Shown piece after piece: positions 8,865 through 62,716 of a DNA stretch of 64,000 nt. Each line of letters opens with the position of its first letter. The first letter of the stretch is position 1. The position numbers and the translations under genes are program-made. A model generated the notes under the pieces. That model saw nothing but the letters and a program-made list of their open reading frames with translations, had not been told where the DNA came from and ran no database searches. This stretch comes from Candidatus Saccharibacteria bacterium CPR2 (GTDB taxonomy: Bacteria > Patescibacteriota > Saccharimonadia > Saccharimonadales > QWHN01). The stretch covers positions 16,102 to 80,101 of the forward strand of contig QWHN01000005.1 in assembly GCA_021404905.1 (NCBI GenBank), given 5' to 3'.

Positions 8865-8902
8865 CCTCTGTTGACTAGCTTAAGCGCATAGGAGTATATT
8901 AG

Positions 8903-11276: not shown

Positions 11277-11311
11277 GAACTAGGAAATAGAAAATAGAAA
11301 TTAGGAGATAG
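11270..11311. repeat. Heptamer array, TAG-arm only (caattag gaactag gaaatag aaaatag aaattag gagatag)
   Basis: Six phased 7-bp units ending in TAG. The first unit contains the stop codon of the S41 protease gene. The word family matches the arrays at 46.3, 51.1, 53.9, 59.5 and 61.2 kb. Confidence 0.7.
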
Positions 11312-11487
11312 TTAAAAGTCATCAAGTTTATAAGGTTATAAAGTGTTTTCTGAAGTTTATTAATTTGAGATTTGTTTGAAATTTGAGATTTGTATTTTGG
11401 AATTTATGTCCCACATCTATACTTCCATATTGCCTTTTAGCCCTGTCTTGATTAATATATACCTCATAGTATTGTGATTGGGAGGTT

Positions 11488-25746: not shown

Positions 25747-25770
25747 TCACACAACTCATAACAACAAATA

Positions 25771-25806
25771 AAAGCCCTCTTTAAAGAGGGCTTTTATTAT
25801 TTTTTA
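25771..25806 (+). terminator. Rho-independent terminator
   Basis: Perfect palindrome gccctctttaaagagggc (25774-25791) followed by ttttattatttttt. Confidence 0.8.
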
Positions 25807-25874
25807 TTACGGTTATCTATTTGTTTTTCTTTGGGGAAAGGTAAAAAAGCTTAAAATCTAGTACACTACTACGT

Positions 25875-35315: not shown

Positions 35316-36186
35316 CCCTTTGTTAAAACAGAAACGCTTTTCTGAATATGACTATTCAAAAGTAGTTAATAAGCACGACAAATCTTTTAAGTCATCTCGT
35401 CCAGAAAATAACATTGCTCGCCATAAAAGGAAACCGGTCTTTGGTTTTATAACGCGTTCTTTATTGCTGATAATATTTTTATTTGTAATTTATATGGCAA
35501 CCACAGTAAAAAATATTGATATTGCAATAATAGAAGAAGGGCCTAACAATACTGCCAGCGTAAAAAACGATTCTGGCCAACAGATGTCTGACTATCTTGG
35601 TTGGTTTGAAAAACGGCTTAATTCTAAAATTTGGGGCAAAAACATACTTTTTATGAACGAAGCCGAGATGTTAGAGGATTTTACCGCTGATAACTTATTA
35701 GTTAAAAGCGCTTCATTTGGCTTTAATTATGCAAGTGGCAGTCTCAAAGTAAATGTTCAACCAAGAGAACCAATGGCAAGATATTCCACTAGCGATAAAA
35801 TCCTGATTCTAGATAATGAAGGATTTGCATTCTCAGATAATGCCAATAATTATAACAACTTGCCATTAATAAAAGATGAAGCTCAATTTGGAGGAATACT
35901 TGGCAAACAAGCAATCGATACTAATACGGCTTTGTATATAAACCAATTTAGCAGTTTATCTAGTGAGCGTTCTTTAAATGTTGAATACTTTGTCATACCT
36001 CAAGCAATACGTGAGGTGTATATTAAATTTTCAAGCAATAAATACATAATAAAAACTCACATGGACATGGGGCCGGAAGCTTCTCTTAATGCCTATGAGA
36101 AGGCACTAGGCTATGTTGCTTCATCCGGGATTAATGTTAGTGAATATATTGACCTAAGAGTAGAAGGAAAAGCAATATATAAATAA
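35293..36186 (+). CDS. FtsQ/DivIB-like cell division protein (putative)
   Basis: 297 aa. Basic cytoplasmic N-terminus, one TM (LLLIIFLFVIYMATT), then an extracytoplasmic domain. Call is based on position after murG and topology, not on a recognised motif. Confidence 0.5.
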   Translation: MKIQRPRNPLLKQKRFSEYDYSKVVNKHDKSFKSSRPENNIARHKRKPVFGFITRSLLLIIFLFVIYMATTVKNIDIAIIEEGPNNTASVKNDSGQQMSDYLGWFEKRLNSKIWGKNILFMNEAEMLEDFTADNLLVKSASFGFNYASGSLKVNVQPREPMARYSTSDKILILDNEGFAFSDNANNYNNLPLIKDEAQFGGILGKQAIDTNTALYINQFSSLSSERSLNVEYFVIPQAIREVYIKFSSNKYIIKTHMDMGPEASLNAYEKALGYVASSGINVSEYIDLRVEGKAIYK

Positions 36187-36867
36187 GAAGAACAGGCAGT
36201 GGGGCAGTGCAATTTAAGAGCTTGGCATTTAGTGGGCTTGTTAATATTTATTTAAAAAATGCACACTGTATGTTTATTTATAAGACTAATAAAAATTTGT
36301 GAGAAATCTAACAATCCTGCTCTCTTCCAAAGTTCGCATTTTGTTCTCTCTGAATGTTTGGATACTGAATAAACTATATAAATACATAATAAAATATCTA
36401 TGTCAAATTGTAAGAGAATAGTGAAGTGGGGTAATAATCAACGTGCCATGTCAAATGCAAAAAATGCAACAACTGTGGATAAACCATAGGCACTTTATGT
36501 ATTTAGACAATGTGCACTCAATACCAATGCAATAAATAAAAATATATTTAATTAGTGGCAACGAAAGCTTAAAATAGTAAATTTTATGTTGGTATATCAG
36601 TCTAGCCCCCTACTACAAAGGTATGAGACTTCATAAACAGGACGCATATAACAAGACGTAAAATATACATTGTGCGACATGCTGTCGATGTGTATTTATA
36701 CCCTCTACAGTCCATATTGTCTGGTTAAATTTACTTATGAATTTTGTATTTTTAATAATTTTTATACCGCTACTTTCTTTTTGTTGGTCTAAAAGATTTT
36801 TATGTTGCTGGTATTTCTTATTAATTATTTACAACAGCCTATAATTAAAAGTACGAGAAATGTACGA

Positions 36868-39342
36868 TTAACGTAATTTTATTTCTGTTTCTTGGATTAT
36901 TGTGCCACTTTTCTTTATTTGAGTTGTATTCTCGCGTATTTTATTATTTTTGTGAGGGTTTCTGTGTTGGTCCGCTTTTCTTTTAGGTATTGACGAAGAA
37001 TCCCCTACTTTATTGTGTGTACTGAGTGTTGTGCGCTTAATGTGTTCTTCCACCTCGCTGCGAGATCTTGCAAACTTTTTTCTGGAATGCTCAATAATAT
37101 TCTGGCTATGGTCTATTTGGGGGGACGGTATGTCTAAAGTAGTAGCTGAGAAGGCAGGAGTTTTTTCCCCGCTAATAGATAGCGCTGCTACAAGATGTCG
37201 ATTGTGAAGCTGGATCAAGTCTTGAGCGTCAAATTGAGGCTCAAAGTATTTTTGCAGTATTGTCGCATCATCTGCTCCGACCCTAAAGGACACCAGGGAA
37301 CCGACATTGCCAAATACGGCATCTCTAACAATTGGGGTCATCTGAGCAACGTATTGATTAGCTATGGTTAGGTTTAGCCCATACTTCCTAGCTTCAGAAA
37401 GGATCACCGCAAATGAATCAGTCGCAAAATTTTGGAACTCATCGACATATAAATAAAAAGGTCTTCTTTCTTCTAGTCTTGCTATGTTTGCCCGGCTCAT
37501 TGCGGCGAGTTGGATCTTTGTTACCATGAGTGCACCTAAAATAGCTGCGTTATCCTCGCCTACAAGTCCTCTTGAGAGGTTTACAATTAAAATTTTACCC
37601 TCATCCATAATTTTTCTAATATTGAAGCTGGATTTTGATTGACCAACAATATTTCTAATCATGGGGTTGGCTGTAAATGCTCCAACTTTATTTAATACCG
37701 GAGCTACAGCTTCAGCGGCAAATTTATCGTTCCAACTAGCAAATTCTGTAACCCAGAAATTGCGTACAACGGGATCATCTATAGTTCTAATAACCTTTGC
37801 GCGGAAATCTTTTTCCGTAAGCATTCTGGTTATGTCAAGCATTGTGGTGTTAGGATGATCCAGCAGGGCTAAAATAGTGTATCGCAAAATGTATTCCAAT
37901 CTTGGCCCCCAAGATTCGAACATTCGTTTTAAAACACCAACTAACTCTGAAGAAATGTGGTTCTTGAGTGATTCATCAGTTATTTCAAGCGGATTAAATC
38001 CTATAGGATAAGCCGTATCTGCCGGGTTGAAATATAAAACGTCGTTAATTCTATGTGCCGGGATATATTTGAGAATATCGGTCGCGTAATCTCCATGAGG
38101 ATCAATGACGGCAAACCCCTGATTATGAAATACGTCAGATAGTGTTAGGAGTTCGAGCAACCCGGACTTACCTACTCCAGTTTGCCCAATAATGTACAAA
38201 TGCCTGCCTCTGTCGTTCCTCCTTAGACCAAATTGCGCATTTGACCCCCTAAAATTGGTAACTCCAAACGGAGATATCTCCTCATCAGATGCACCACTTA
38301 AAATCGGAAGGGTTGCCGGCGGTTCCGCAGTCTTGCTTGTTGCCCATATAATATTCGGTGTTTCAACTGATGTGTGCGGTAAGTGATAAAGACTGGCTAG
38401 CTCTTCAATATTTAGTATCCTGCCGTCGTTTAAGAAAAATCTTGCCTGATATTCACTAAGTTTGTTCGGAGAAAATGATCTGGATTTCTCAACAATACGA
38501 TTTAAGTTGGTTGAGTTAAACTGCTTAAAACTTCCAATCATGGCCTGCATACGAAGTTTAGCGGTACGTTCGTCATTACCCAAGTAAACAATCCGTATTT
38601 TAACTTGGTAACCTAATTTTGTAGTTTTTTCTTGAACTGCTTGGATTCTACTCCTGTCTCTTTCTGAAAGTTCAGGCGCAGCGGATTTTGCCGAAGCTTC
38701 AGTGGGTGCTCGCCAAAGAGCCAGCAGCCCGTGTGTTAGGGCTCCAACAAAATTGCTGGAACCGTTACCCAAAAATCCCCCGCCATTTTTAATTAAGTTT
38801 ATAAATCTTTGTCCCTTTTTATGCCAACTATCATCAACTGGTCGGGCTAGTATTTGTATCCATAGTTCTTCGTCCTCTTGTTCTAATTTTGCCAGGGTGG
38901 CGGTAATTCCCGCCAACGGGTCCACTTCAAAGTTTGGGAAAGTTTTTATAGGCAAAACCTCATTATCTCCTAGAGTGAGTTCTGTGGTATAAGCTACTGA
39001 TTGGTTGATGTTTCTTGCCGCGTAGTCATCTTTTATTTCATATATTTGTACAGTCGGGTATTGAGCGTATATTTGGCCTTCAACAAAGTTTTGTAAATGT
39101 TGAGGCGTCCAGACATAAAAGTGGATTCTGTGTCCAATTGAAACTATCTCGAAAGAAATATGCTCCTGCAAGGTCCCTTCTTGGATTAATTCTCGCTTTG
39201 GCCTTAAAATTCCATGCAGCGCTGCAAACATTTGTTCCGCAGCTAACTCTTTTTTATCATTGGTACGGGGTACCTCAAGCATGAGTAAGGTGTAATCCGT
39301 TTCTTTTATATGCCGGCTGCGCCGACTGTTTTGCCAGGTCAT
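36868..39342 (-). CDS. Soluble TraD/VirD4/TraG-like (type IV coupling protein-like) P-loop ATPase with a large N-terminal domain of unknown function
   Basis: 824 aa. Walker A IIGQTGVGKSG and Walker B FYLYVDEFQNF, with C-terminal region similarity to FtsK/HerA-clade T4CP ATPases. No N-terminal hydrophobic helices. Confidence 0.65.
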   Translation of the reverse strand: MTWQNSRRSRHIKETDYTLLMLEVPRTNDKKELAAEQMFAALHGILRPKRELIQEGTLQEHISFEIVSIGHRIHFYVWTPQHLQNFVEGQIYAQYPTVQIYEIKDDYAARNINQSVAYTTELTLGDNEVLPIKTFPNFEVDPLAGITATLAKLEQEDEELWIQILARPVDDSWHKKGQRFINLIKNGGGFLGNGSSNFVGALTHGLLALWRAPTEASAKSAAPELSERDRSRIQAVQEKTTKLGYQVKIRIVYLGNDERTAKLRMQAMIGSFKQFNSTNLNRIVEKSRSFSPNKLSEYQARFFLNDGRILNIEELASLYHLPHTSVETPNIIWATSKTAEPPATLPILSGASDEEISPFGVTNFRGSNAQFGLRRNDRGRHLYIIGQTGVGKSGLLELLTLSDVFHNQGFAVIDPHGDYATDILKYIPAHRINDVLYFNPADTAYPIGFNPLEITDESLKNHISSELVGVLKRMFESWGPRLEYILRYTILALLDHPNTTMLDITRMLTEKDFRAKVIRTIDDPVVRNFWVTEFASWNDKFAAEAVAPVLNKVGAFTANPMIRNIVGQSKSSFNIRKIMDEGKILIVNLSRGLVGEDNAAILGALMVTKIQLAAMSRANIARLEERRPFYLYVDEFQNFATDSFAVILSEARKYGLNLTIANQYVAQMTPIVRDAVFGNVGSLVSFRVGADDATILQKYFEPQFDAQDLIQLHNRHLVAALSISGEKTPAFSATTLDIPSPQIDHSQNIIEHSRKKFARSRSEVEEHIKRTTLSTHNKVGDSSSIPKRKADQHRNPHKNNKIRENTTQIKKSGTIIQETEIKLR

Positions 39343-46326: not shown

Positions 46327-46342
46327 GAGAACAGTATAGCGT

Positions 46343-46444
46343 ACAGAAATTAGAAAACAGCAATTAGGAAACAGAAAATAGTATATTTTTAAAAACTAAT
46401 TCCTATTTTCTAATTGCCAATTCCTATTTCCCAATTGCTATCTC
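46343..46444. repeat. Heptamer-array palindromic element (copy A)
   Basis: Left arm acagaaa ttagaaa acagcaa ttaggaa acagaaa. AT-rich centre containing the 32-nt core (46373-46404). Right arm ctaattc ctatttt ctaattg ccaattc ctatttc ccaattg ctatctc. The last three units lie inside the 3' end of the pseudouridine synthase CDS. Confidence 0.8.
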
Positions 46445-51018: not shown

Positions 51019-51044
51019 GCTGGTATCAAGTATACAGGAAACGG

Positions 51045-51192
51045 GAAATAGCAAATAGCAATTGGGAAATAGAGATTGGAAACTAGAAACTAGCAATTAG
51101 AAAATAGAAATTAGGAATAAGTAGAAAGAGCGCATCGTTTTTCAAATCCTATTTTCCAGTTCCCAGTTCCCAATTCCTAATTTCTATTCTCT
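51045..51192. repeat. Heptamer-array palindromic element (copy C)
   Basis: Left arm of 12 phased units (caaatag caattgg gaaatag agattgg aaactag aaactag caattag aaaatag aaattag gaataag ...). A 15-nt centre. Right arm aaatcct attttcc agttccc agttccc aattcct aatttct attctct. Fills the HK-stop to RR-start spacer. Confidence 0.8.
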
Positions 51193-52717
51193 ACTTGCGG
51201 TACATCGCATGGTTTTTAATCCAGCCATGCGAGCTGCGGACTATACCCTTTTCTGGTTGTTCCAGTTTATTGGCTACCGAAGCAAACGTCGGTACTAAAA
51301 ATCCAAAAGTTGAGCCCTCCCCTTCCTTAGAACTCACATATATTTGGCCGCCATGCGCATCAATAATGGCTTTTGATAAATACAGCCCAAGACCAGTGCC
51401 GCCTACGGCTCCTTTGGTACGGTGAGACCGGTAAAATTTCTTGAATAAATTACCAATTACGGATGATGGAATACCAATGCCACGATCTTGAACAATTACC
51501 TCTACCTGGTCGCCTCGTTGTCTTAGCTCAACGACAATTTCGCCGCCTTCATAACTGTATTTGATCGCGTTGTCTACTAAATTATTTAGCACCTCGGTAA
51601 TTCCTACTTTGTCTATGGCTACGGTGGGCAGATTTTGCGGACTTTTTAAGATAATCTTACGATTTAGGGCAGTTGCTCTTAAGCCAATTTCGTCTACAGT
51701 TTCTTTGGTAGTTGAGATAATATCTTCTTCCTTAATAAAAAGCTTTAACTCGTTTTGGTCCACACGGGACACATTTAATATGTTGTTGACATAAGTAGCC
51801 AGTTGATTAGCCGAGAGGACTACCTTGGAAAGAAGCCCTTTTTGTTCATCATTAGCTACACTATTCAGCTCATCGCTAAGCACATCTAGATACCCGCGTA
51901 TCACTGTAATCGGACCTCTGAGCTCATGTGCTGCCAAAGCAACAAAGCTAAGCTGATTTTCATCTTCACTATATGAACCGGTTTTATCTGTGAATACCAA
52001 AACGACTTCTTGATTCAGACTGTCATTTTTACTGTAATGCGCTACTAAATCTATATAACGCACCTGATTTTTTGAGCTTAACTTTACACGGTTCCAAATG
52101 CGTTTGTCGTGCACCTTATTTTGTCTGGAAGATTCGAGCCAACTTTTATAATCACCTTCACCCTGAAAATCCAAATTCACTATTCTTTCAAAAGGCACCC
52201 CAATTGATTCGGATTGCTCGCTGCCGATAAATTCAAGAGCTTCTTTATTAGCAAAAGCCAGACTTTGGTTGTTATCAAGAATCATTACTGCAACTGGCAG
52301 TTTGTTAAGGATAGACTCAATATATCTGGCATTGCTATTACTTGTTTGCGATTCAGCTTCCTTGCTTTTGACAAGTTTATAAATATTATCAGTAAGTTTT
52401 TCTATTAATTCACGGCCAAGCAACGTGCCCTTGATTGTTAGTGTCTGCGCGCTTTCTTCGGGCGCCAGGATATTGGCTATAACTTTAGTCAGAACATCTA
52501 TTGGTTCGATGATAAAGGTTTGTAAAAAATAGACCAGGATTGAACCAACAAATGTTGAAACGCCAAAAGCTATGATTGAGGTGATTTCTATTGAAATGTC
52601 GAAATATATATTTAGTAATAACCACGTTAATGTCCCTGATGCAGCCACAATTCCGTACGACAAGAACATCACCCATGAGATGTGTGCTCTAAGTTGGCGA
52701 ATTAAATCTTTCTGCAT
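51191..52717 (-). CDS. Membrane sensor histidine kinase (2 TM + PAS-like + HisKA + HATPase)
   Basis: 508 aa. H-box LAAHELRGPIT, N-box LVDNAIKY, and G-boxes DRGIGI / GTGLGL. Confidence 0.85.
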   Translation of the reverse strand: MQKDLIRQLRAHISWVMFLSYGIVAASGTLTWLLLNIYFDISIEITSIIAFGVSTFVGSILVYFLQTFIIEPIDVLTKVIANILAPEESAQTLTIKGTLLGRELIEKLTDNIYKLVKSKEAESQTSNSNARYIESILNKLPVAVMILDNNQSLAFANKEALEFIGSEQSESIGVPFERIVNLDFQGEGDYKSWLESSRQNKVHDKRIWNRVKLSSKNQVRYIDLVAHYSKNDSLNQEVVLVFTDKTGSYSEDENQLSFVALAAHELRGPITVIRGYLDVLSDELNSVANDEQKGLLSKVVLSANQLATYVNNILNVSRVDQNELKLFIKEEDIISTTKETVDEIGLRATALNRKIILKSPQNLPTVAIDKVGITEVLNNLVDNAIKYSYEGGEIVVELRQRGDQVEVIVQDRGIGIPSSVIGNLFKKFYRSHRTKGAVGGTGLGLYLSKAIIDAHGGQIYVSSKEGEGSTFGFLVPTFASVANKLEQPEKGIVRSSHGWIKNHAMYRK

Positions 52718-53781: not shown

Positions 53782-53832
53782 ACATATGAGTATCTCGAAT
53801 TAACCCGTTTTTATCAAGAGGCTTACGGTTGT

Positions 53833-54045
53833 ATAACTTTTAACTATTTCCCAATTCCTAGTTTTCATTTGCCATTTACCAATTACCAATCATTGTCTCA
53901 ATAAAGCATTTATCATTGATAAAAATATCTCATTAGTTAACTGACTAAATGAATGGCAACTGGTAAATGATAAGTGGTAAGTCTTTATACGAGCTTGATA
54001 GCTTTTAACTAATTCCTAGTTGCTGATTCCCAATTGCTAATCGCT
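53833..54045. repeat. Heptamer-array palindromic element (copy D, variant word set)
   Basis: Left arm ctatttc ccaattc ctagttt tcatttg ccattta ccaatta ccaatca. Right arm gaatggc aactggt aaatgat aagtggt. A 21-nt module gagcttgatagcttttaacta follows, then aattcct agttgct gattccc aattgct aatcgct, which lies inside the gltX 3' end. Confidence 0.75.
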
Positions 54046-55511
54046 ATATTCAGGCGCCTTATGGTCGTTTCTTTACCTAAAACGGCCAGGGTCTCAGCTA
54101 GAGGAGGGCTAAAGGGTGCCCAAGTGGTAGCGATTCGAACGAGGCTAAATAAAACACCCGGTTTTTGAGAAGTTTGTTGCAATAAATTATTTAAGCTATC
54201 AGTTAGACCCGCAATGCTAAAGTCACTTTGTTCCAAAGCGTCAATGGTTTGTTTCAACAGGGCTTTTATCTCGTCCATAGAAAATCGGCTAAGCTGTTTA
54301 TTATTTTTGATAAGTTCCAAATCTATGGGCTGATCCTCAAAAAAGAACTTAGTCAATTGGGGAAGTTCGTCAAAATGCTTTAGTCGTTCTTGAACCAGCT
54401 TTAAAACCTGGGTTTTATAGGCGTTGTCAAATTTGCCTGCTGCTTCCGGCCAAAACTTGGCACCGGTTTCTAATCCCTGATTTTTAATTGTCTCGAAAAG
54501 TTGCTCGATACTTTTAGAACGAATGTGGTGCCCGTTTAGCCAACTAAGTTTTTCCGGCTCGAACCTGGCGGGAGATTTTTGGATTCTCTCTATAGAAAAT
54601 GCATTTAAGATTTCATCAATGCTATAAACTTCCTGATTTGTGCCGTCATTCCAACCGAGTGATGACAGGAAATTAAACACGGCTTCCTTTAGGTAACCTT
54701 GGTCACGATATTCCAACACCGACATTGCCCCTTCGCGCTTTGATAACTTTTTCCCGCCGTTCTTCCCAAGTACTGGCGGTAGTGTGATAAATTTTGGCGG
54801 TTGCCAGCCAAGGGCGTCATAAACCGATAAAAATTTTGGCATTGAAGATATAAACTCCTCGCCTCTTATAACATGAGTGATTTTCATTTCGTAGTCGTCC
54901 ACAATGTGAGCGAAGTTGTAAGTCGGAAAACCGTCAGCTTTGATTAGGATAAAATCATCCAATGCCTCCGGGCCGGCAGAAAGCTTGCCCCGGACTTCAT
55001 CCTGCCATGAGTAAGGTTTAACCTCAGGGACTTTAAGGCGCAATGGTTTTGTCTCGTCCCATTCAATACTTTTATCTGAAAATTCAGGGCGATAATCCCT
55101 AAATAAAAAAGGCTTGTTGCTATTTTTTGATTGCCCCCGAAACTCTTCTAACTGTTCTTGGGTGTATGGATCAGGATAAGCATGCCCGGCTTCAAGTAAT
55201 TGTCTGGCATATTTTTTATATATGTCTAGTCTTTGAGATTGAAAATATGGGCTATTTTCACCGCCGACATCCGGACCTTCATGCCATTCAAGCCCAAGCC
55301 ACTTCAGCGACTCTTTAATTTGCTCAACCGCGCCTTTAACCTCGCGTTTTTTATCTGTGTCTTCGATTCTTAAAATAAAATCGCCATTATTTTGCTTGGC
55401 TATAATCCAGGCAAAGAGCGCTGTTCTAATCGCGCCGACATGAAGCATGCCGGTAGGACTGGGCGCAAAACGGGTTCGGACACTCATTACCAACATAGTA
55501 TCTTCTAACAT
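54009..55511 (-). CDS. gltX: Glutamate--tRNA ligase
   Basis: About 490-500 aa. HIGH-type motif PSPTGMLHVG and KMSKS-type KLSKR. The start may be the Met of MSVRTRFAPSP (55487). Confidence 0.9.
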   Translation of the reverse strand: MLEDTMLVMSVRTRFAPSPTGMLHVGAIRTALFAWIIAKQNNGDFILRIEDTDKKREVKGAVEQIKESLKWLGLEWHEGPDVGGENSPYFQSQRLDIYKKYARQLLEAGHAYPDPYTQEQLEEFRGQSKNSNKPFLFRDYRPEFSDKSIEWDETKPLRLKVPEVKPYSWQDEVRGKLSAGPEALDDFILIKADGFPTYNFAHIVDDYEMKITHVIRGEEFISSMPKFLSVYDALGWQPPKFITLPPVLGKNGGKKLSKREGAMSVLEYRDQGYLKEAVFNFLSSLGWNDGTNQEVYSIDEILNAFSIERIQKSPARFEPEKLSWLNGHHIRSKSIEQLFETIKNQGLETGAKFWPEAAGKFDNAYKTQVLKLVQERLKHFDELPQLTKFFFEDQPIDLELIKNNKQLSRFSMDEIKALLKQTIDALEQSDFSIAGLTDSLNNLLQQTSQKPGVLFSLVRIATTWAPFSPPLAETLAVLGKETTIRRLNIAISNWESATRN

Positions 55512-55556
55512 GAATTGCTATTCAAGTTAAATTTGATTACAATACTTGATCAGAGA

Positions 55557-56288
55557 ATGTCTATGCCTCCAAAAATTGTTTACCCTCAAAAAGATAATAA
55601 TACCGACCATCCAACCCCTAATGAAATATATGACAACGCGAATAGAAACAGTCCTCAAGATTATTCTGAGATTACTGAACCGGGTAAGATTACCAAATTT
55701 TTGACAAAATCTATTTTTGTGAAATTGTATTATTTCAATTTTTTTGGACTTTTGTTCTGGGTTTTATTATTAATCTTTACACTTATTCTTACAGTCATAA
55801 TTAATTCCACTCAAACTCTTACGGAAAATGCAATTAATGCAATTCATGGTTTGCTATGGGGAGGTCAATTTTTTTGGTTAGCTCTGGAGCTTTCATTAAT
55901 GCTATCCGGGGTATTAATATTTAAAAACAATATTAAATTATTACAATCAAATCGAAAATGTGTACCTAAAGTGGTTAAATTTGTTGGTGCGCTTTGGGGG
56001 CTTACACTTTTGGTCGGGATATTTATTACTGGGCATGTATTGTTCTCGAATACAGATTTTATTAATTCTGTATTAGCACTGGGTATCGTGTCTGTAGTAT
56101 TTTTTATGTTTTGGCTTTATGCCGTAAATGTGCTAATTAACCGCATACTTAAGCGAATAGACAGTCAGCGCCCTTTTAATTTAATAACAACAATGCTTAC
56201 ACTAATTTTTGAAACTTTAATAATATTTTTTGGTTATATAATTATTACCATCACCGCTACAATTGTGGATCCACCTGATTCAGGCTAA
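55557..56288 (+). CDS. Hypothetical polytopic membrane protein
   Basis: The ATG at 55557 gives MSMPPKIVYPQ. About 6 hydrophobic helices. No motif recognised. Confidence 0.5.
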   Translation: MSMPPKIVYPQKDNNTDHPTPNEIYDNANRNSPQDYSEITEPGKITKFLTKSIFVKLYYFNFFGLLFWVLLLIFTLILTVIINSTQTLTENAINAIHGLLWGGQFFWLALELSLMLSGVLIFKNNIKLLQSNRKCVPKVVKFVGALWGLTLLVGIFITGHVLFSNTDFINSVLALGIVSVVFFMFWLYAVNVLINRILKRIDSQRPFNLITTMLTLIFETLIIFFGYIIITITATIVDPPDSG

Positions 56289-56304
56289 AAAATCCAACAT
56301 TACT

Positions 56305-57150
56305 ATGAGTGCAATTTCAATCACATCGAGATATGCAAAAATCAATTCACTTGTAAAAATGACCCGACCGCAAAACATGCGATTCACAGTAGCCGTCTAT
56401 ATAGTAAGCGGAGCGGTTTTTGGTTTATCTACAATAGCTATAATCCTTGGTTCGTTAATTTATTTTCTGCTTTATGGTTTGGCCACCATTATTAATAACA
56501 TAAGAGATGTTGAAGTCGATAAGCTAAATAAAACGAACAATCCCTTAGCAAAAGGCAATGTAAGCATACAAGAGGTAAAAGTTCTTTTTTCAATTTACCT
56601 TTTGGGTTTAATTATCATCCAGTTACTTCTTCCACAACCTGAAACATTGATATTTGCGCTTACTTTACTGTTTTTTAGTTTAATATATTCTTGGAAAGTA
56701 ACAGATATTCAATCAAGGGGTTTGATTGCGACGATATTACTCTCGCTTATGTATTCAGGTTCTCCCGTATTATTAGCAGGTATATATTCTGGGTATTTTC
56801 CTCTATTTCAAGCATGTGTCTTGGGTCTTCTAACCACTGCCGGTCTACTCGCTAAGGATTATAAAGACATAAAAGGTGATAAGTTGCATGGCAAGCTTAC
56901 CCCATTGGTTCGATATGGTGAAAAAACAGTTAGAACAATTGCTTATACCGTAGGAATAATAGCTTTAATTTTTGTATTTTACTCAAATTCTATGAATTTA
57001 GCAGTATATATTACTTTATCCACTTTTTATTTAAGTAGTGCCTACTGGCTACATAAAAATAAAGCGCATAATAATCTAATTAAGATATTGCATCAGACAT
57101 CTGTGGTATTTTTGGTAGTTTTTTATCTTCAAGGTGAATTTTTAAAATAA
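56305..57150 (+). CDS. UbiA-family prenyltransferase
   Basis: The ATG at 56305 gives MSAISITSRY. Polytopic, with first Asp-rich motif NNIRDVEVD (NxxxDxxxD) and second KDYKDIKGD. Confidence 0.75.
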   Translation: MSAISITSRYAKINSLVKMTRPQNMRFTVAVYIVSGAVFGLSTIAIILGSLIYFLLYGLATIINNIRDVEVDKLNKTNNPLAKGNVSIQEVKVLFSIYLLGLIIIQLLLPQPETLIFALTLLFFSLIYSWKVTDIQSRGLIATILLSLMYSGSPVLLAGIYSGYFPLFQACVLGLLTTAGLLAKDYKDIKGDKLHGKLTPLVRYGEKTVRTIAYTVGIIALIFVFYSNSMNLAVYITLSTFYLSSAYWLHKNKAHNNLIKILHQTSVVFLVVFYLQGEFLK

Positions 57151-57157
57151 ACTAAGA

Positions 57158-58255
57158 TTATAGGCTGGCGGCGATTTTTACGATTTGCTCACTGTTTAAG
57201 CTTGAGTCTCCCTCTATCGTGTACCACACGCCACCATTCACCCATGTTGCGCTTGAACCGTTATAAACGTAAATTGTCAGCCCTCGTTCTTTATAGGTCT
57301 GGTAGAGCTGATGCTCTTTGGCTACAAAATTGTCAAATAAACTCCTTGAGTCCCAGCCGCTGGATTTTTGGATAATCGAATATTTGCGTTCATCTGTGTT
57401 TGTATTAAACCCGATTGTAATTTGCCCAGCGCTATAAGATATGGGTCCGCTAAAAGCAAATCCGGTAGGCGTATATCCGGGCATCTTGGCATTAAATCCC
57501 GCCCTGGAGGCGGCTACTCTCATGGATAAATTAGGGATATTCAGATAAGTTATATAACCCGCCAACAAAACTACGCTTGTAAAAGTAGCCAAACCTGTAA
57601 CCAACTTTGGCCGGGAGCGCAATTTTTTAAAAATTTTTGGCTGCTTTTTTGAAGTATTTTTTTGTGTTTTTGAACTAATACGAGCTGGCTTAGCTTTGCT
57701 CATTTGCTCTTTAATAAGCTCGTTTTTTAGTACTTTTGCTGGCTTGGATGTGGTGGCAGTGCTTTGTTGTTGCGGGGTAATATTCTGAACGGTTTGGCTG
57801 TGCTTTGCGAAACCAATTAGGGAGAGATCTTGGCCAAATTTTGAAATGGCATTACTCAGACTATATTTTTTAGCTCGTCTTTCTCTGAGTTTTGCTTCGT
57901 GTGAGTTGATCACCAAACCAGAATGTTTTTCGGGTTGGATGATTGATCTTGAAACACTCTTTGATTCTACGCGAGGATGCGCCTGGGGTTTTTTTAGAAT
58001 TTGTCTTTGCAGCGTCTCGGAACGTTTGGTTTTTTTATGAACTTTACTTGCAAGTGGTGTGGGGTGGCTTCTTTGTTTTGTTTTTACTGGTCCAGAGTTT
58101 TTAGGGCGCACAAAACCATCAATTGTTTTTTTATGTTGGTTATGTGATTGTTTTGCGTGCGTTTTGATATCTTGATTATTTACCAACTCTCCGGTGTTGG
58201 CATCATAAACCCGACCGTTGATAACGACTGTATTGTGTTTTTTTGAGCGATCCAT
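57158..58255 (-). CDS. Hypothetical bitopic protein: basic K/Q/S-rich cytoplasmic region, one TM, C-terminal DUF4367-like domain
   Basis: 365 aa. TM helix LVTGLATFTSVVLLAGYITYL. The C-terminal beta-rich domain assignment is tentative. Confidence 0.45.
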   Translation of the reverse strand: MDRSKKHNTVVINGRVYDANTGELVNNQDIKTHAKQSHNQHKKTIDGFVRPKNSGPVKTKQRSHPTPLASKVHKKTKRSETLQRQILKKPQAHPRVESKSVSRSIIQPEKHSGLVINSHEAKLRERRAKKYSLSNAISKFGQDLSLIGFAKHSQTVQNITPQQQSTATTSKPAKVLKNELIKEQMSKAKPARISSKTQKNTSKKQPKIFKKLRSRPKLVTGLATFTSVVLLAGYITYLNIPNLSMRVAASRAGFNAKMPGYTPTGFAFSGPISYSAGQITIGFNTNTDERKYSIIQKSSGWDSRSLFDNFVAKEHQLYQTYKERGLTIYVYNGSSATWVNGGVWYTIEGDSSLNSEQIVKIAASL

Positions 58256-58351: not shown

Positions 58352-59362
58352 TTATAGCCCCAGCAAACTACGTTTATATTCATCCAGATGGCTCAAGGCG
58401 TAGTATGTTCCTTTGGCGTTGCAAAGCAAAGGGTCTTGGGCCATAAAGCACGGTGTGTTTAGTTTTCTGGACAAATATTCTTCAATGCCATTGAGCTGCG
58501 CCACTCCTCCGCTGAGTACAATACCTTGACCGACAATGTCGCTGACTACATCAGGCGGGGTTCTTTCAATCGCGTTGCGCACAGCAAGAATTATTCTGTC
58601 AAAGACGCCTTCAAGGTGTGGCCTTAAATCTCTACCTTTAACATCGACGCTTTTTGGCAACGAGTCAGACAAATTACGGCCGCGAACTGTCATTTTTTGG
58701 TCATCAAATTCATCGTGAACCGCGCCAATCTTTAGTTTGGTTTCTTCGGCTGTATTCAAACCTATATGCATATTATGGGTCCGTCGAAAATATCTGGTTA
58801 TTGCCTCGTCCATTGCTTTGCCGCCAACCCTCACAGCCTCTTTGGTGACTATTCCTCCTAAAGACAGGACTGCTATTTCAGTCGTACCACTGCCTATATC
58901 GACAATCATATGGCCCTTTGGCTCAATAACGGGAATAGATGCGCCTAAAGCTGCCGCTACCGGTGAATAGATTAGAAATACGTTTTGGATTCCTGCTTCA
59001 TGTCCAACGTCTAGAACAGCCCGCTGCTCCGTAGAAGTTGCACTAACAGAGACGGTGATCATGGCTTCAGGCTTCTGAATATGAAAGCGCCCAATAGCCT
59101 TTTGCACAAAATTTCGAAGCATTTGTTCGGCTGCGCCAAAATCCGCGATGACACCGTTTTGCAAAGGATAATATGCCTCAAGTTGCTCCGGTGTGCGTCC
59201 CAGCATGTCTATCGCGTCAAGCCCAACGGCAACAATTTTGTCATTCTCAGTATTTTTGGCCACAACGCTAGGTTCATCAACAATTATCCCTTTACGAGGT
59301 ATGTAAATTCGAGTTCTGGATGTTCCCAGATCTATACCAATTTTTTTACTGAAGATTGCCAT
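58352..59362 (-). CDS. mreB: Rod shape-determining actin homologue MreB
   Basis: 336 aa. IGIDLGTSRT, VDIGSGTTEIAV and LSGGVAQLNG actin-fold motifs. Confidence 0.9.
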   Translation of the reverse strand: MAIFSKKIGIDLGTSRTRIYIPRKGIIVDEPSVVAKNTENDKIVAVGLDAIDMLGRTPEQLEAYYPLQNGVIADFGAAEQMLRNFVQKAIGRFHIQKPEAMITVSVSATSTEQRAVLDVGHEAGIQNVFLIYSPVAAALGASIPVIEPKGHMIVDIGSGTTEIAVLSLGGIVTKEAVRVGGKAMDEAITRYFRRTHNMHIGLNTAEETKLKIGAVHDEFDDQKMTVRGRNLSDSLPKSVDVKGRDLRPHLEGVFDRIILAVRNAIERTPPDVVSDIVGQGIVLSGGVAQLNGIEEYLSRKLNTPCFMAQDPLLCNAKGTYYALSHLDEYKRSLLGL

Positions 59363-59402
59363 TTGTAATACCTTAGCACAGGTTAGCCATGAGGCACCAC
59401 AA

Positions 59403-59705
59403 GAATTGGGAAATGGGAACTAGCAATTGGGAATTAGGAACTAGAAACTGGAAATTAGAAAATAGTATATTTTTAAAAAACTAATTCCTAGTTTCTAACT
59501 CCTAATTCCTATTTTTAACTTTATGAACTTGATAACTTTTAACTAGATTCCAGATTCCAGATTCCAGATTCCAGATTCCAGCTTCTAGATTCTAGCTTCT
59601 ATTTCCCAATTCCCAATTTCTATTTCCTAATTGCTGTTTCCTAATTTCTATACTCTATACGTCATACTGCATACTTCATACTCTATTTCCTAATTCCCGT
59701 TTCAT
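59403..59705. repeat. Heptamer-array element (copy E): hairpin part plus a 23-unit one-sided array including (AGATTCC)x5
   Basis: Nine purine-arm units at 59403-59465 (gaattgg gaaatgg gaactag caattgg gaattag gaactag aaactgg aaattag aaaatag). Core at 59457-59489. Five pyrimidine-arm units at 59481-59515. Module gaacttgataacttttaacta at 59525-59545. 23 phased heptamers at 59545-59705. Confidence 0.85.
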
Positions 59706-61162
59706 TGTTTTTCAACAACAAGATTAACCCTTTGAATTATTGTTTCTGTTGCGCTTGCGGGAGGAGCGACTGTATATATATTTTCAAAATCGTGGTCAAA
59801 GAAAACATCAAACCTTGGGTCGATTGGCACAATCTCCACTAAATTTGCCCCGTCAAATTCAAAGATCAACAGCTTGTTTGATTGGTCTTGGAGCATCAAT
59901 CGGTGCCCATCCATCCACTCGGCAAGTACGTTTTCCGCTAAAGGACGGTCAACTGCGAATTGGTAAGTTTTGTCATACTCGATGTCATAAACCGTAAACT
60001 TAGACCCATTTTGCAAACTAACAAACTGAGAATTATTAGAAAATGATGCCATTTGCGGTTTCTCGCTCGAAATAGTTCTAAACGGCTTTGGCTTTTCGCC
60101 TTCCTTGGTATCAAATGGGTTTTTGTAGATATAAGTCATATTAGTTGGAGAGTCTGTGATCGCCAGATATTCGTCACCGTCATATTTTTCCATTCTCATA
60201 AAATATTTTTCATTAGGGGCAACATCTCTTATCTCCATGGTTTTACCGTCTTTTAGAATACTAGCCCGAATCGTACCACTGTCTTTGAGTTCATGAATCA
60301 ATAAAACGGCTTTGTCTCCATAAACTCTGTAATACAGAACATGCTCCATTAGGGAGCTGGATATGGTTTTTTTATCAAGGTCAATGAGCCTTAGAGATTT
60401 ATCAACGAGGGCATATAATTGATTATTCGAACCTCCCAGAAACTGGATGTTATCAAGGGGCAAGCCAAACTCACGGGAAATGTTGCGGCTTGTCTCGGGT
60501 TTGGTGCGATCAAATACGATAAATTCGTTAATATCCCCGTTTTTATGGTTTAGCAAAATAACTTTATTATCCTGTGCCCATTCGATAATTTTTAGGTCGC
60601 CCAGCTTGCCGTCTTTTTTAGTAAACACTTCTTCGGGCAAGACAACGTTTTTTATAGGTCTTTCGATTTTATCTACTTCAATTTGATCATAAATTGGTTT
60701 ATCGGAAGAATTACGCACCAAGAGCCAAAATTTATCTAAACTTTGGCTGGCATCATTTACTTTTGGATATGTAAATTGCGTGGCAGCAAGAATCTGCTCT
60801 GGGAATAACTTTGGATAGTACACCCACATCACTTCTTCACCCTTTAATTCGACATTTTTTGACCAGGAACGGTAACCATCTCGCTTTAATTCGAGTTTGT
60901 ATTCGCCGGCCGGCAGGGCCAGTTTCCCTGGGGTCGTGTCGTTCTCGGCTTTATCGTTAATAAAAATCTGCGCTGGTTTTGGTCCCGCATCAACAAGTAT
61001 TAATCCGTTTTGTATCAATGTGCCGGTATTCCTATCAATATCGTAGCCTTTAGCGGCAAACACGATAAAAATGGTTGCGATAGCTGCTAACGCACCGCCG
61101 AGCGCATATAATAGTAAACGAATGGTTGAGCGCACTCTTTCAGATTGAAAGTCTATAAACAT
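59702..61162 (-). CDS. PEGA-domain membrane-anchored protein
   Basis: 486 aa. N-terminal TM and a PEGA-type beta-sandwich (PKPAQIFINDKAENDTTPGKLALPAGEYKLELKRDGYRSWSKNVEL). The long C-terminal region is not assigned. Confidence 0.6.
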   Translation of the reverse strand: MFIDFQSERVRSTIRLLLYALGGALAAIATIFIVFAAKGYDIDRNTGTLIQNGLILVDAGPKPAQIFINDKAENDTTPGKLALPAGEYKLELKRDGYRSWSKNVELKGEEVMWVYYPKLFPEQILAATQFTYPKVNDASQSLDKFWLLVRNSSDKPIYDQIEVDKIERPIKNVVLPEEVFTKKDGKLGDLKIIEWAQDNKVILLNHKNGDINEFIVFDRTKPETSRNISREFGLPLDNIQFLGGSNNQLYALVDKSLRLIDLDKKTISSSLMEHVLYYRVYGDKAVLLIHELKDSGTIRASILKDGKTMEIRDVAPNEKYFMRMEKYDGDEYLAITDSPTNMTYIYKNPFDTKEGEKPKPFRTISSEKPQMASFSNNSQFVSLQNGSKFTVYDIEYDKTYQFAVDRPLAENVLAEWMDGHRLMLQDQSNKLLIFEFDGANLVEIVPIDPRFDVFFDHDFENIYTVAPPASATETIIQRVNLVVEKQ

Positions 61163-61207
61163 ATGAAAATAATAAAATTGTTACGCATATAGTATAGCTG
61201 ATAGATA

Positions 61208-61346
61208 CTGGGAAATGGTAATTAGCAATTAGCAATTAGGAACTAGGAATTAGTTTTTAAAAATATACTATTTTCTATTTCCTAATTGCTGTTTCCTAAT
61301 TTCTATACTCTATTTCCCAATTCCAAATTGCTAGTTCCTATTTCCC
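61208..61346. repeat. Heptamer-array palindromic element (copy F)
   Basis: Purine arm actggga aatggta attagca attagca attagga actagga. Core at 61245-61276 is the exact reverse complement of 46373-46404. Pyrimidine arm has 11 units (ctatttt ctatttc ctaattg ctgtttc ctaattt ctatact ctatttc ccaattc caaattg ctagttc ctatttc). Confidence 0.85.
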
Positions 61347-61360
61347 GGAAGCTGGGCTTC

Positions 61361-62425
61361 CTAAAAGATTCCATCCCAAATTCGTTGCCATAAACTTGGT
61401 GCGCTGCCTGGAACTTGGGAATCAATTTCTTTGGGCAGTTGTGTTTCTGTTGCGGTTGCGCTTAGCGGATCGGGTACGATTTGCTCTGCTTGAACAACCA
61501 GTCTTCTCCAGCTTGTACCGGGAGGCGTGCATGTAATTAGCGATGTGATAGGCCTGTCGGCAGTTTGAATTAAGGAAAAATCATTTGGAGCAACAATTTG
61601 TTTATTAAATACCTTATAGATGTATCGTTTACTGCCATAATGAATTACAAATGTGTCTCCTACTTCCAGTCTATCAAGTAAAACAAAGGCAAATTTATAC
61701 TTTCCGGAGTTGAAGAAGTTGTTACTTGAATGGCCGACTATGACGTTATTGCCAATTTGGCCGGGGAGCGCGCTTTCTCCGTAATGGACTACACCGCCCT
61801 CCAAAGCCTTTTGGATTTTACCTTCATCATAAGACTTTTCATCATAAACAACCGGCACATCCACATTTATTTTAGGAATGACAATCTTGGGCGCGCTGCT
61901 AACTGGAATTTCGGCATTTGGATCTAAAATTACAGGAGTGTTGAATTCTTTACCAGGGCTGATGTAGGACTTAACTTGCCCGATAACAATATGATTATAG
62001 TTAAGTGTTAAGAAGATAAAACCCACTACTCCGGCAATTAGTAAAGGTTTACCGTGTTTTTTCCTAAACGACTTTGTTTGGGGACCCAGTTTTGAAACAA
62101 TATGTTTTTTTGCTTGGGCAACTGACGTTAGTCTAGTTTTATGGCTTTTATGATGGGTTGGGTGGGCATAACCAACTTGTTTTGAATGCAATCCTTCATG
62201 TTGGCTGGTTGCGGCTTGCGAAGCGCGGTGATAACGTTGCCATTCGGCATGCTTTTGCTCATCAGTTAAGCTATGGTACCATCTCTCGTATGCTGCACGA
62301 TCAACTTTGGGGTCTGGTCTATCATTTGGAAATGCGCCATGGTGTTCTTGAAAATTCGCATCATGATGCCCAGAAGATGGTAAATGGAATTGATTATGTT
62401 TTGAATTCATAAAAAATCTAAGCAA
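61361..62425 (-). CDS. Sortase-family transpeptidase with His-rich N-terminal extension
   Basis: 354 aa. TM helix (LLIAGVVGFIFLTL), catalytic His region NVIVGHSS, catalytic Cys motif LITCTPPG and downstream Arg (RRLVV). 16 His in the first 108 residues. Confidence 0.75.
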   Translation of the reverse strand: MLRFFMNSKHNQFHLPSSGHHDANFQEHHGAFPNDRPDPKVDRAAYERWYHSLTDEQKHAEWQRYHRASQAATSQHEGLHSKQVGYAHPTHHKSHKTRLTSVAQAKKHIVSKLGPQTKSFRKKHGKPLLIAGVVGFIFLTLNYNHIVIGQVKSYISPGKEFNTPVILDPNAEIPVSSAPKIVIPKINVDVPVVYDEKSYDEGKIQKALEGGVVHYGESALPGQIGNNVIVGHSSNNFFNSGKYKFAFVLLDRLEVGDTFVIHYGSKRYIYKVFNKQIVAPNDFSLIQTADRPITSLITCTPPGTSWRRLVVQAEQIVPDPLSATATETQLPKEIDSQVPGSAPSLWQRIWDGIF

Positions 62426-62528
62426 CTTAATGCCCTTTAAACAGTATTATAGTACAATTATCTGTAGTCTTCGTACAGATAGGCTTAAGTAGTGTATGGT
62501 TGCTTAAATAGCTAACATGGGTATATCC

Positions 62529-62606
62529 GGGCGAGTGGCGGAATTGGCAGACGCGCTGGACTCCCACCTACGTTGCAAAACTACGGTGGGCAGGCAAAAT
62601 CCGTGG
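62529..62606 (+). pseudogene. Degenerate partial copy of tRNA-Leu (5' half) with a 32-nt insert at the anticodon position
   Basis: 29 nt at 62535-62563 are identical to 62634-62662 of the intact tRNA-Leu (D arm to anticodon-loop CTC). A 32-nt insert follows at 62564-62595, then AAAATCC matching the 3' side of the anticodon loop and stem. No T arm or 3' acceptor. Confidence 0.55.
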
Positions 62607-62627
62607 TATATTACAGCAAAAAGTATT

Positions 62628-62716
62628 GCCGAGGTGGCGGAATTGGCAGACGCGCTGGACTCAAAATCCAGTGAGAGTAAAATCTCGTGTGGGTTCGACT
62701 CCCACTCTCGGCACCA
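62628..62716 (+). tRNA. tRNA-Leu (anticodon CAA), CCA encoded
   Basis: Manual cloverleaf: acceptor GCCGAGG/TCTCGGC, anticodon arm CTGGA-CTCAAAA-TCCAG, long variable arm TGAGAGTAAAATCTCGT, T arm GTGGG-TTCGACT-CCCAC, A + CCA. 89 nt. Confidence 0.9.

Follow-up and report, generated by a model that had tools for sequence, protein, structure and literature searches.

According to the accounts given in PMC4679880 and PMC4692102, heptanucleotides are the most abundant class of long simple sequence repeats (SSRs) in most genomes, and polymerase slippage has been proposed as their origin (Mrázek et al. 2007). Rehm et al. (2015) described intergenic, transcribed arrays of GGGAATC, or (GGGANTN)n, in Xanthomonas and of GGGGA(C/T)T in Nostoc PCC 7120 (PMC4692102). 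The G-rich strand of these repeats is preferentially the coding strand just downstream of open reading frames (ORFs), and some form inverted pairs capable of stem-loop formation; the repeats of close relatives differ in length and sequence, lie beside genes of all functional classes, and have no assigned function (PMC4692102). The same paper cites three tandem heptanucleotide repeats in Calothrix PCC 7601. MacGregor (2015) reported TAACTGA repeats in marine Beggiatoaceae, cyanobacteria, and Bacteroidetes and suggested a role in rearrangement for long arrays (PMC4679880), and the P6b stem of the Nostoc tRNA-Leu(UAA) intron is built of 7-nucleotide (nt) motifs, TDNGATT or NNTGAGT, that change by whole units (PMC4476775). 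Here, we analyze a tandem heptamer array, A1, at positions 59545-59705 of a 64,000-nt stretch of Candidatus Saccharibacteria bacterium CPR2 (contig QWHN01000005.1, positions 16,102 to 80,101; hereafter the window), between the genes for a PEGA-domain protein and MreB. We propose, with a probability of about 0.6, that A1 is the slippage-prone heptanucleotide satellite arm of a composite imperfect palindrome spanning all of the PEGA-mreB spacer and was moved beside the mreB-proximal arm by recombination. A1 belongs to a lineage-specific family of heptamer arrays that occupies spacers between co-directional housekeeping genes.

The 161 bases of A1 cut into 23 consecutive heptamers, exactly the units listed by the original prediction, which was made from the letters of the window alone and held that the phase is never lost. 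Computational re-examination bears this out: on the plus strand, column 1 is A in 21 of 23 units, column 6 is C in 19 of 23, and column 7 is C or T in all 23, so that no indel breaks the heptamer phase. Self-identity of the array is 0.73 at a lag of 7, 0.69 at a lag of 14, and 0.59 at a lag of 21, with values of about 0.2 to 0.3 at the remaining lags. The lag-7 value lies far above that of 2,000 dinucleotide-preserving shuffles of A1 (mean 0.30, standard deviation 0.035, maximum 0.42). Tandem Repeats Finder, suggested at the outset as a check, recovers A1 split into several rows of period 7, 14, or 21, one covering 59545-59592 (6.9 copies, 92% matches) and further ones covering 59603-59618, 59610-59651, and 59647-59686. 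The array and its sub-blocks are as follows.

59545-59705, minus strand: A1, the reported array, 23 in-phase heptamers; the sense (minus) strand is purine-rich, with the unit pattern R-G-N-A-A-N-T
59545-59579, plus-strand letters: sub-block (AGATTCC)x5
59580-59600, plus-strand letters: sub-block AGCTTCT/AGATTCT/AGCTTCT
59601-59649, plus-strand letters: sub-block of A[AT]TTCC[CT]-type units
59650-59684, plus-strand letters: sub-block of ATACnnn units
up to 59705, plus-strand letters: the last three units, ending in the PEGA stop

On the sense strand, where units such as GGAATCT, GGGAATT, AGGAAAT, and AGAGTAT occur, G is found at position 2 in 19 of 23 units, A at position 4 in 18, and T at position 7 in 21, and the unit junctions read U-R-G at 17 of 22 and UAG at 10 of 22. 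The PEGA stop codon (59702-59704) falls within the final unit (59699-59705), where it had been placed originally, and from there the array runs in the sense direction toward mreB, its far end lying about 180 nt upstream of the mreB start. Each sense frame contains three to five stops and at most 20 open codons, and the antisense frames have at most 36 open codons; with stops in all frames of both strands, A1 is non-coding. The perfect (AGATTCC)x5 beside degenerate units fits an evolving slippage array, in agreement with the original description of a graded tandem array that follows the PEGA stop and lies upstream of the mreB hairpin.

In kind, A1 conforms to the described heptamer systems. It is a head-to-tail run of 7-nt units longer than chance, as in the bacterial long SSRs, and it is non-coding and recurs at many dispersed loci (six spacers in 64 kb), as in the intergenic heptanucleotide SSRs. 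With the Xanthomonas and Nostoc repeats, it shares perfect or heterogeneous 7-nt arrays that are dispersed and intergenic, a G-rich sense strand after an ORF, and inverted pairs; (GGAATCT)n is one base per unit from the Xanthomonas (GGGAATC)n in cyclic register, and GGGAATT and GGGAAAT fit GGGANTN. Unlike those repeats, it is hosted by a member of the Saccharibacteria, within the candidate phyla radiation (CPR), and its units are less G-rich, with no predicted G-quadruplex. The window copies are also mostly long purine-loop-pyrimidine palindromes with a shared loop that coincide with an inversion and with indels, whereas greater stability was reported around the Xanthomonas and Nostoc repeats. 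As for the TAACTGA repeats, intergenic arrays are mixed with other heptamers, the spacers of relatives are shorter and repeat-free, and the contigs of relatives often end inside the arrays. Most TAACTGA repeats, however, comprise two to six copies within a few nucleotides upstream of a start codon, with a proposed translational role, while A1 extends for 23 units from a stop codon. The P6b stem resembles A1 in being a long RNA stem of degenerate heptamers (a predicted one for A1), and gain or loss of its units sometimes affects a single side of the stem, leaving the arms asymmetric or with side loops; P6b is constrained inside a group I intron, whereas the A1 family lies in intergenic spacers.

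Arrays of this type in heterocystous cyanobacteria reportedly received the name short tandemly repeated repetitive sequences (STRR) from Mazel et al. in 1990, with the consensus units CCCCAGT, TTGGTCA, and CAACAGT. Like STRR and the long SSRs, the A1 family consists of tandem heptamers at many dispersed intergenic loci, with sub-families grading together and a slippage origin proposed. The unit sequences and the phylum differ, making it the same kind of repeat in a different sequence family; with R-G-N-A-A-N-T units and a saccharibacterial host, A1 was not assigned to any named cyanobacterial STRR family. Repetitive extragenic palindromic (REP) sequences and the bacterial interspersed mosaic elements that they form (BIME; REPIN) have units of 20 to 40 nt with a conserved GTAG head and are moved by REP-associated tyrosine transposases (RAYT). 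The window elements are likewise dispersed imperfect palindromes between co-directional genes and could be intercistronic stem-loops and rearrangement substrates. They differ from REP in consisting of tandem heptamers with 40- to 90-nt arms, and no RAYT was seen within the 64 kb. A CRISPR array was rejected on a period of 7 nt and the lack of spacers. A contingency-locus SSR was also rejected: A1 extends from the PEGA stop to about 180 nt before the mreB start, its comparable part shows no polymorphism, and the family flanks unrelated genes.

To place these units among bacteria, we scanned the GTDB species genomes with the degenerate pattern RGVAAHT x4, which gave at least 120 matches (loci L014-L133). 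Those listed fall in cyanobacteria, Acidobacteriota, Bacteroidota, Clostridia, Planctomycetota, Desulfobacterota, and several Patescibacteria, including a Howlettbacteria genome. The presence of similar arrays in many phyla supports a general cause, such as slippage at 7-nt units, over a lineage-specific function. No earlier report of heptamer or tandem repeats of this kind in Saccharibacteria was found in full-text literature searches. Among the matches listed, there are also arrays of the AATTGGG, AATTAGG, AATTAGC, and AACTGGA types, some in genomes of 60-67% G+C, and the arrays are often inverted pairs flanking G+C-rich hairpins (e.g., L023, L061, and L111).

The spacer between PEGA and mreB is 339 nt long and contains, in sense order, A1, module M, A2, a loop, A3, and the mreB leader. 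The parts of the locus that bear on the origin of A1 are as follows.

59706-61244, minus strand: segment inverted relative to the 81% relative (see below) and distant Saccharibacteria; PEGA coding sequence, its upstream region, and about 40 nt of heptamer arm
59516-59544, minus strand: module M (sense TAGTTAAAAGTTATCAAGTTCATAAAG), a non-heptamer sequence directly after the purine array A1
59481-59520, minus strand: A2, a short arm of purines in the local hairpin that precedes mreB
59466-59480: loop TATATTTTTAAAAAA (sense TTTTTTAAAAATATA), between A2 and A3
59399-59465, minus strand: A3, a 67-nt sense-pyrimidine arm adjoining the mreB 5' region
61361-62425, minus strand: sortase gene
59702-61162, minus strand: PEGA-domain protein gene
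58352-59362, minus strand: MreB gene
57158-58255, minus strand: DUF4367 protein gene

We compared this gene order with that of a relative whose PEGA protein is 81% identical (the 81% relative; Logan ERR4450749 contig, L011/L134). It keeps the order gltX-DUF4367-mreB-PEGA-sortase, with PEGA on the opposite strand, and by blastn its positions 7910-9446 match the window in reverse, from 61244 to 59706, with both flanks collinear. In three distant Saccharibacteria (L265-L267), PEGA is opposed to DUF4367 and sortase, as in the 81% relative, and the orientation in the window is therefore the derived one. No heptamer arrays occur in the corresponding spacers of these three genomes, so the arrays are lineage specific. 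Judged by gene order, it can be shown that the PEGA gene was inverted in this lineage, with A1 at one junction and a heptamer palindrome at the other. The original prediction was right about the tract itself but missed both the inversion junction and the membership in a known class of repeats.

Details of the two boundaries fit with this comparison. The mreB-PEGA spacer of the 81% relative holds one small palindrome, made up of a purine arm, an M-like sequence, a pyrimidine arm, and the PEGA promoter region, and the hairpin upstream of its mreB folds no better than shuffles (z = 0.07). The pyrimidine arm accompanies the PEGA 5' end in both genomes; its copy in the window, 61206-61253, pairs with 61268-61346. 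Module M sits exactly at the mreB-side boundary of the inversion, and A1 now adjoins it. The orthologous spacers of the 81% relative carry arrays that differ in length, sequence, or even polarity, or carry none.

The original prediction of an array left unpaired is not supported. It had stated that A1 has no full-length complementary arm, which stands insofar as A3, at about 70 nt, is much shorter than the 161 nt of A1 and leaves it only partly matched. A complementary arm does exist: A3 (59399-59468) is 72-80% complementary over 50-62 nt to 59562-59651 of A1, in several registers 7 nt apart, and the best ungapped register has 50 of 70 positions complementary. The further claim, that A1 would be a single-stranded purine tract of about 160 nt in the mRNA, conflicts with RNA folding, the figures of which are equilibrium thermodynamic predictions. 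The predicted minimum free energy (MFE) of the whole spacer is -103.4 kcal/mol (z = -6.9), in a structure that joins A3 to the middle of A1, and (GGAAUCU)5 is predicted to form a hairpin of its own with G·U pairs. In the Boltzmann ensemble, the expected pairs of A3 number about 50 with A1, against none with A2, and the mean unpaired probability over A1 is 0.31. Forbidding A1 from pairing raises the predicted energy to -48.6 kcal/mol, a cost of about 55 kcal/mol. Pairing of A2 with A3 is predicted at -34.7 kcal/mol, and co-transcriptional folding could still favor this local hairpin. A1, if transcribed, is thus probably partly base-paired rather than single-stranded.

The unit family of A1 occupies six spacers of the window, about 885 nt in total, or 1.4% of its length. 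All six loci sit between co-directional housekeeping genes, and the upstream stop codon is often overlapped.

11257-11345, plus strand: between an S41 peptidase gene and pyrG; purine array followed by M, overlapping the peptidase stop, with no partner arm
46334-46441, minus strand: hairpin element filling the rluB-like/der spacer, z = -8.2
51029-51200, minus strand: long heptamer hairpin between histidine kinase and response regulator genes, z = -4.7
53830-54046, minus strand: between gltX and DUF3048; two units of purine array followed by M, with an internal hairpin
59399-59705, minus strand: PEGA/mreB spacer, containing A1
61206-61347, minus strand: palindrome that separates the sortase stop from the PEGA 5' region, with arms 61206-61253 and 61268-61346 and loop 61254-61267, z = -5.1

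The usual layout is a purine arm, a loop, and a pyrimidine arm, and such hairpins fold with z = -4.7 to -8.2 relative to shuffles. The loop motif TATATTTTTAAAAAA is also present at 46382 and in reversed form at 61254, the mark of a dispersed hairpin element. An element of about 100 nt with the loop TATATTTTTAAAAA is present at 46336-46436 and 61213-61313 (89% identity over 101 nt), with a variant at 59399-59520. Four purine arrays have no adjacent partner arm, and each is followed directly by module M, which recurs at 11309 (plus strand), 53995 (minus strand), and 53830 (minus strand). The array at 53830-54046 overlaps about the final 12 codons of gltX, and the purine array with M at 11257-11400 has no predicted structure (z = +0.7). 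In the 81% relative, the spacer orthologous to the kinase/regulator locus has no such hairpin. A fixed polarity of the purine arrays with respect to transcription was rejected: all four unpaired arrays of the window are purine-rich in the sense strand, but the array in the gltX-DUF3048 spacer of the 81% relative has the opposite polarity. By eye, a perfect hairpin of small size and high G+C (sense GGAAGC CCA GCTTCC) can be seen at 61347-61360, between the sortase stop and the heptamer palindrome.

Module M is itself a short-period repeat of the AAGTTAT type. By inspection of its four copies, no acceptable pair of -35 and -10 boxes with 16-18-nt spacing was found for a sigma-70 promoter, and a consensus scan of the spacer gave only two weak promoter-like sites, with no excess over shuffles. 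A pattern scan of metagenomes with module M (TAGTTAAAAGYTATMMA) gave at least 120 matches, mostly by chance since the pattern is too short, and none of the matches listed came from this organism. On an unrelated low-GC metagenome contig (L178, 278-375), an AAGTTAT-type hairpin, TAGTTAAAAGTTATAAAGTTCATAAAG ... CTTTATAACTTTTAACT, fills what appears, from its flanks, to be the rplB/rpsS spacer, and similar hairpins occur in L135 and L189. Such hairpins suggest another family of short-period repeats, akin to module M.

Taken together, these comparisons are consistent with the following course of events. Two heptamer palindromes would formerly have flanked PEGA. One, carrying module M in the loop, would have separated mreB from the 5' end of PEGA, and the other would have lain where the 3' ends of PEGA and sortase face each other. 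Arms in mutually inverted orientation would then have recombined, breaking near the loops, which would have flipped PEGA and swapped the inner arms. The arm that once followed the PEGA stop would now adjoin M, with A1 as its reverse complement, and would face the mreB-proximal arm A3, to which it is complementary at the family level only. Later slippage may then have added the perfect (AGATTCC)x5 and made A1 far longer than its partner arm. Such a swap would explain why a long array of single polarity adjoins M, why A1 is complementary to A3 merely at the family level, and why both junctions are still palindromic. If A1 derives from the former partner of 61268-61346 as its reverse complement, then an exact direct repeat of 42 nt on either side of PEGA is expected, and 59617-59658, inside A1, is identical to 61272-61313. 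The same 42-nt repeat is 91% complementary to 46334-46377. A1 would have no sequence-specific function of its own. If transcribed, A1 and A3 would most likely form a long imperfect stem that could act in mRNA stability or processing in the manner of REP sequences, a role that is speculative and builds on predicted folds. The most defensible view is that the demonstrable effect of the arrays is genomic, at the sites that set strains and species apart in gene order and content, and that they are recombination and slippage hot spots that break assemblies.

Independent support for the array comes from Logan short-read contigs, ten of which encode an identical PEGA protein at 98.6-100% nucleotide identity. 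In all ten, A1 is unchanged over its first 56-78 nt, on the PEGA-proximal side; the proximal third of A1 is real and stable. All ten contigs end within A1, and their opposite ends lie in the hairpin upstream of PEGA, inside its loop. The PEGA protein itself matches one of Candidatus Saccharibacteria bacterium CPR2 at 100% identity. In the heptamer arm upstream of PEGA, strains differ by whole-unit substitutions, and their PEGA coding sequences differ by 0.4-1.4%. No relatives of the PEGA protein were found in the GTDB species genomes, so the source genome and its close kin lie outside that collection. Gene content and order also change at arrays elsewhere. Logan contigs with an identical MreB protein (97.5-99.8% nucleotide identity) lose homology with the window at 59509-59511, inside A2, and upstream of mreB they have a divergent PGI gene in six contigs, each from a different sequencing run, or, in L256, a gene for an MFS transporter. 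Each of these contigs (among L255-L261) carries its own purine arm, including units of the AGAGTAT type as in A1. Between gltX and DUF4367, the window has two opposite-strand genes, for a membrane protein and a UbiA prenyltransferase (55515-57150; spacers of 3 and 7 nt), that are missing in the 81% relative and in a 97.5%-identical strain contig (L255). At this site, the strain contig has a heptamer hairpin and the 81% relative a 120-nt spacer with heptamer units.

Several points weigh against the proposed origin. Since every retrieved independent short-read contig breaks in or before distal A1, the window is the single source for the distal two thirds of the array, including (AGATTCC)x5, and for the junction of A2, M, and A1; the count of 23 units comes from one assembly, and a local mis-join in the source contig is conceivable. 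The original prediction had called for comparing array length among relatives. That comparison gave a mixed answer, with A1-type arrays differing greatly from those of the 81% relative but no length polymorphism in the eight proximal units across the ten strains; with the proximal units invariant, ongoing slippage is inferred solely from the five perfect copies. The inversion model also leaves the extra loop and the A2 segment between A3 and M unexplained. The opposite polarity that arrays in the 81% relative can have with respect to genes argues against a strict strand-specific function, and the hairpins lack U-tracts. Finally, the junctions of PGI or MFS genes with mreB could partly be mis-joins of the de Bruijn graph rather than strain-level rearrangements at the heptamer hairpin.

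The window also has features of note outside the heptamer loci. The 29-nt 5' end of tRNA-Leu(CAA) is exactly duplicated (62535-62563 and 62634-62662; gene at 62628-62716), with the copy 99 nt upstream in a part of the spacer (62487-62626) that is unmatched in the 81% relative, and the duplicate could be the scar of an integration or excision at this tRNA. Genes switch from the plus strand before 36.2 kb to the minus strand after 36.9 kb (about 36186-36868), and the cumulative GC skew peaks at about 36 kb, which together look like convergence of the replication terminus type.

Three other explanations of A1 survive about equally well, each of them unlikely. In the first, A1 would be a cis-regulatory platform on which a protein with a 7-nt register binds purine RNA or DNA and controls the translation, stability, or transcription of mreB or PEGA. 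The register-specific conservation of the sense strand, in both the unit positions and the U-R-G and UAG junctions, speaks for such a binder, and there are four instances of a purine array with M, each on the sense strand and ahead of a gene start. HutP binds UAG-N4-UAG, and a HutP-like oligomer is one candidate binder; S1, CsrA, and cold-shock proteins are others. Precedents exist in Nostoc, where heptamer repeats near starts or promoters altered the expression of recO and recF reporters (bioRxiv 10.1101/2022.06.06.494920), and in the translational-regulator role proposed for TAACTGA repeats, with S1, CsrA, and cold-shock proteins as candidates (PMC4679880). Against this platform, a strong hairpin and a distance of about 180 nt separate the end of A1 from the mreB start, the genes flanking the family are unrelated housekeeping genes, no candidate binding protein was identified, and the unit sequence varies widely within one array. 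Arrays that vary or are missing in the 81% relative and are absent from distant Saccharibacteria do not make a conserved regulon.

It is similarly improbable that A1 and its neighbors are copies or fragments of a mobile non-autonomous element, resembling a miniature inverted-repeat transposable element (MITE) or REP/REPIN, with a transposase encoded elsewhere. Inverted arms and a shared loop, as in MITEs, are present: the hairpin element of about 100 nt with conserved loop and arms has two 89%-identical copies and a variant, a 42-nt piece of it lies inside A1, and orthologous sites differ by presence or absence between relatives. Yet no target-site duplication or sharp end is visible in the four aligned copies from the 64 kb, and neither beside any locus nor among the scanned proteins is there a transposase, RAYT, or integrase gene. 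The arms, moreover, consist of degenerate heptamers repeated in tandem a variable number of times, a structure more in keeping with slippage than with copy-and-paste.

The third explanation, a functional RNA structure, is as doubtful as the other two. A1 would be a terminator or insulator similar to a Rho-independent one, a stabilizer of mRNA 3' ends or, in a variant, a two-quartet G-quadruplex of (GGAAUCU)5. Enterobacterial REP-type stem-loops act between co-directional genes, which is where all loci of this family lie, and both the spacer (z = -6.9) and the family hairpins (z = -4.7 to -8.2) fold well. That signal is tempered by the fact that any inverted repeat made from one unit family folds well, by the one unstructured member (z = +0.7), by the relative's mreB hairpin at z = 0.07, and by loci inside likely operons (kinase/response regulator and rluB/der). 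An intrinsic terminator was rejected, with no terminator-like site on either strand of 59300-59760; the stems are A+U-rich, 30-60 bp long, and lack a U-tract, and no G+C-rich stem with a U-run was found. The related GGGAATC repeats, transcribed in Xanthomonas, form G-quadruplexes in vitro (PMC4692102). In A1, however, the G-runs are three GGG and eight GG rather than four tracts of at least three G, and the MFE structure under the ViennaRNA G-quadruplex model contains no quadruplex. In the Rfam search, only two tRNAs reach threshold in the window and none at A1; the sub-threshold matches in 59200-59900, to long-hairpin families (microRNA precursors and WsnRNA46), all fall on the local hairpin and none on A1. 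A contiguous inverted repeat at 25758-25807 (25-nt arms, 88% complementary, ATAACAACAAATAAAAGCCCTCTTT / AAAGAGGGCTTTTATTATTTTTTAT), with the core AAAGCCCTCTTT/AAAGAGGGCTTT followed by a T-rich run, resembles an ordinary bidirectional intrinsic terminator, unlike the heptamer hairpins.

A bolder reading, slightly less probable than these three, is that the heptamer palindromes form a lineage-specific recombination system in which arms are exchanged between loci, that the purine arrays with M are a 7-nt-register platform for an oligomeric RNA- or DNA-binding protein co-ordinating housekeeping operons, or both. If true, the recombination system would cover the inversion of the PEGA surface-protein gene, the varied neighbors of mreB, and the indels of gene cassettes in a small, streamlined genome. 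Least likely by far is that A1, or its length or junction, is an assembly artifact of a metagenome-assembled genome: repeat regions break every retrieved short-read contig, contigs with identical MreB have other upstream neighbors from inside A2, and short-k assemblers could go astray at the perfect 35-nt periodic block and the 42-nt exact repeat, but the proximal 56-78 nt agree in ten independent assemblies, A1 is degenerate enough for unique placement of 100-150-nt reads, the flanking inverted repeats are only 79-86% identical and so leave the PEGA orientation unambiguous for reads, and the PEGA-mreB adjacency and the same repeat family also occur in the 81% relative.

A1 by itself reveals no new mechanism, comparable repeats have been described in other bacteria, and the finding is modest. 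Its nearly identical unit adds Saccharibacteria to the cyanobacteria, Xanthomonas, and Beggiatoaceae as bearers of the heptanucleotide-repeat phenomenon. In the small, tightly packed genomes of the CPR, a repeat family that fills whole spacers and takes up 1.4% of 64 kb is notable. Because heptamer arrays break short-read assemblies, they are also a practical source of fragmented or mis-joined metagenome-assembled genomes. The arrays coincide with the places at which strains, and sister species, differ in gene order, the inverted cell-surface gene PEGA beside mreB being one case, and they could be a main driver of structural evolution in this lineage.

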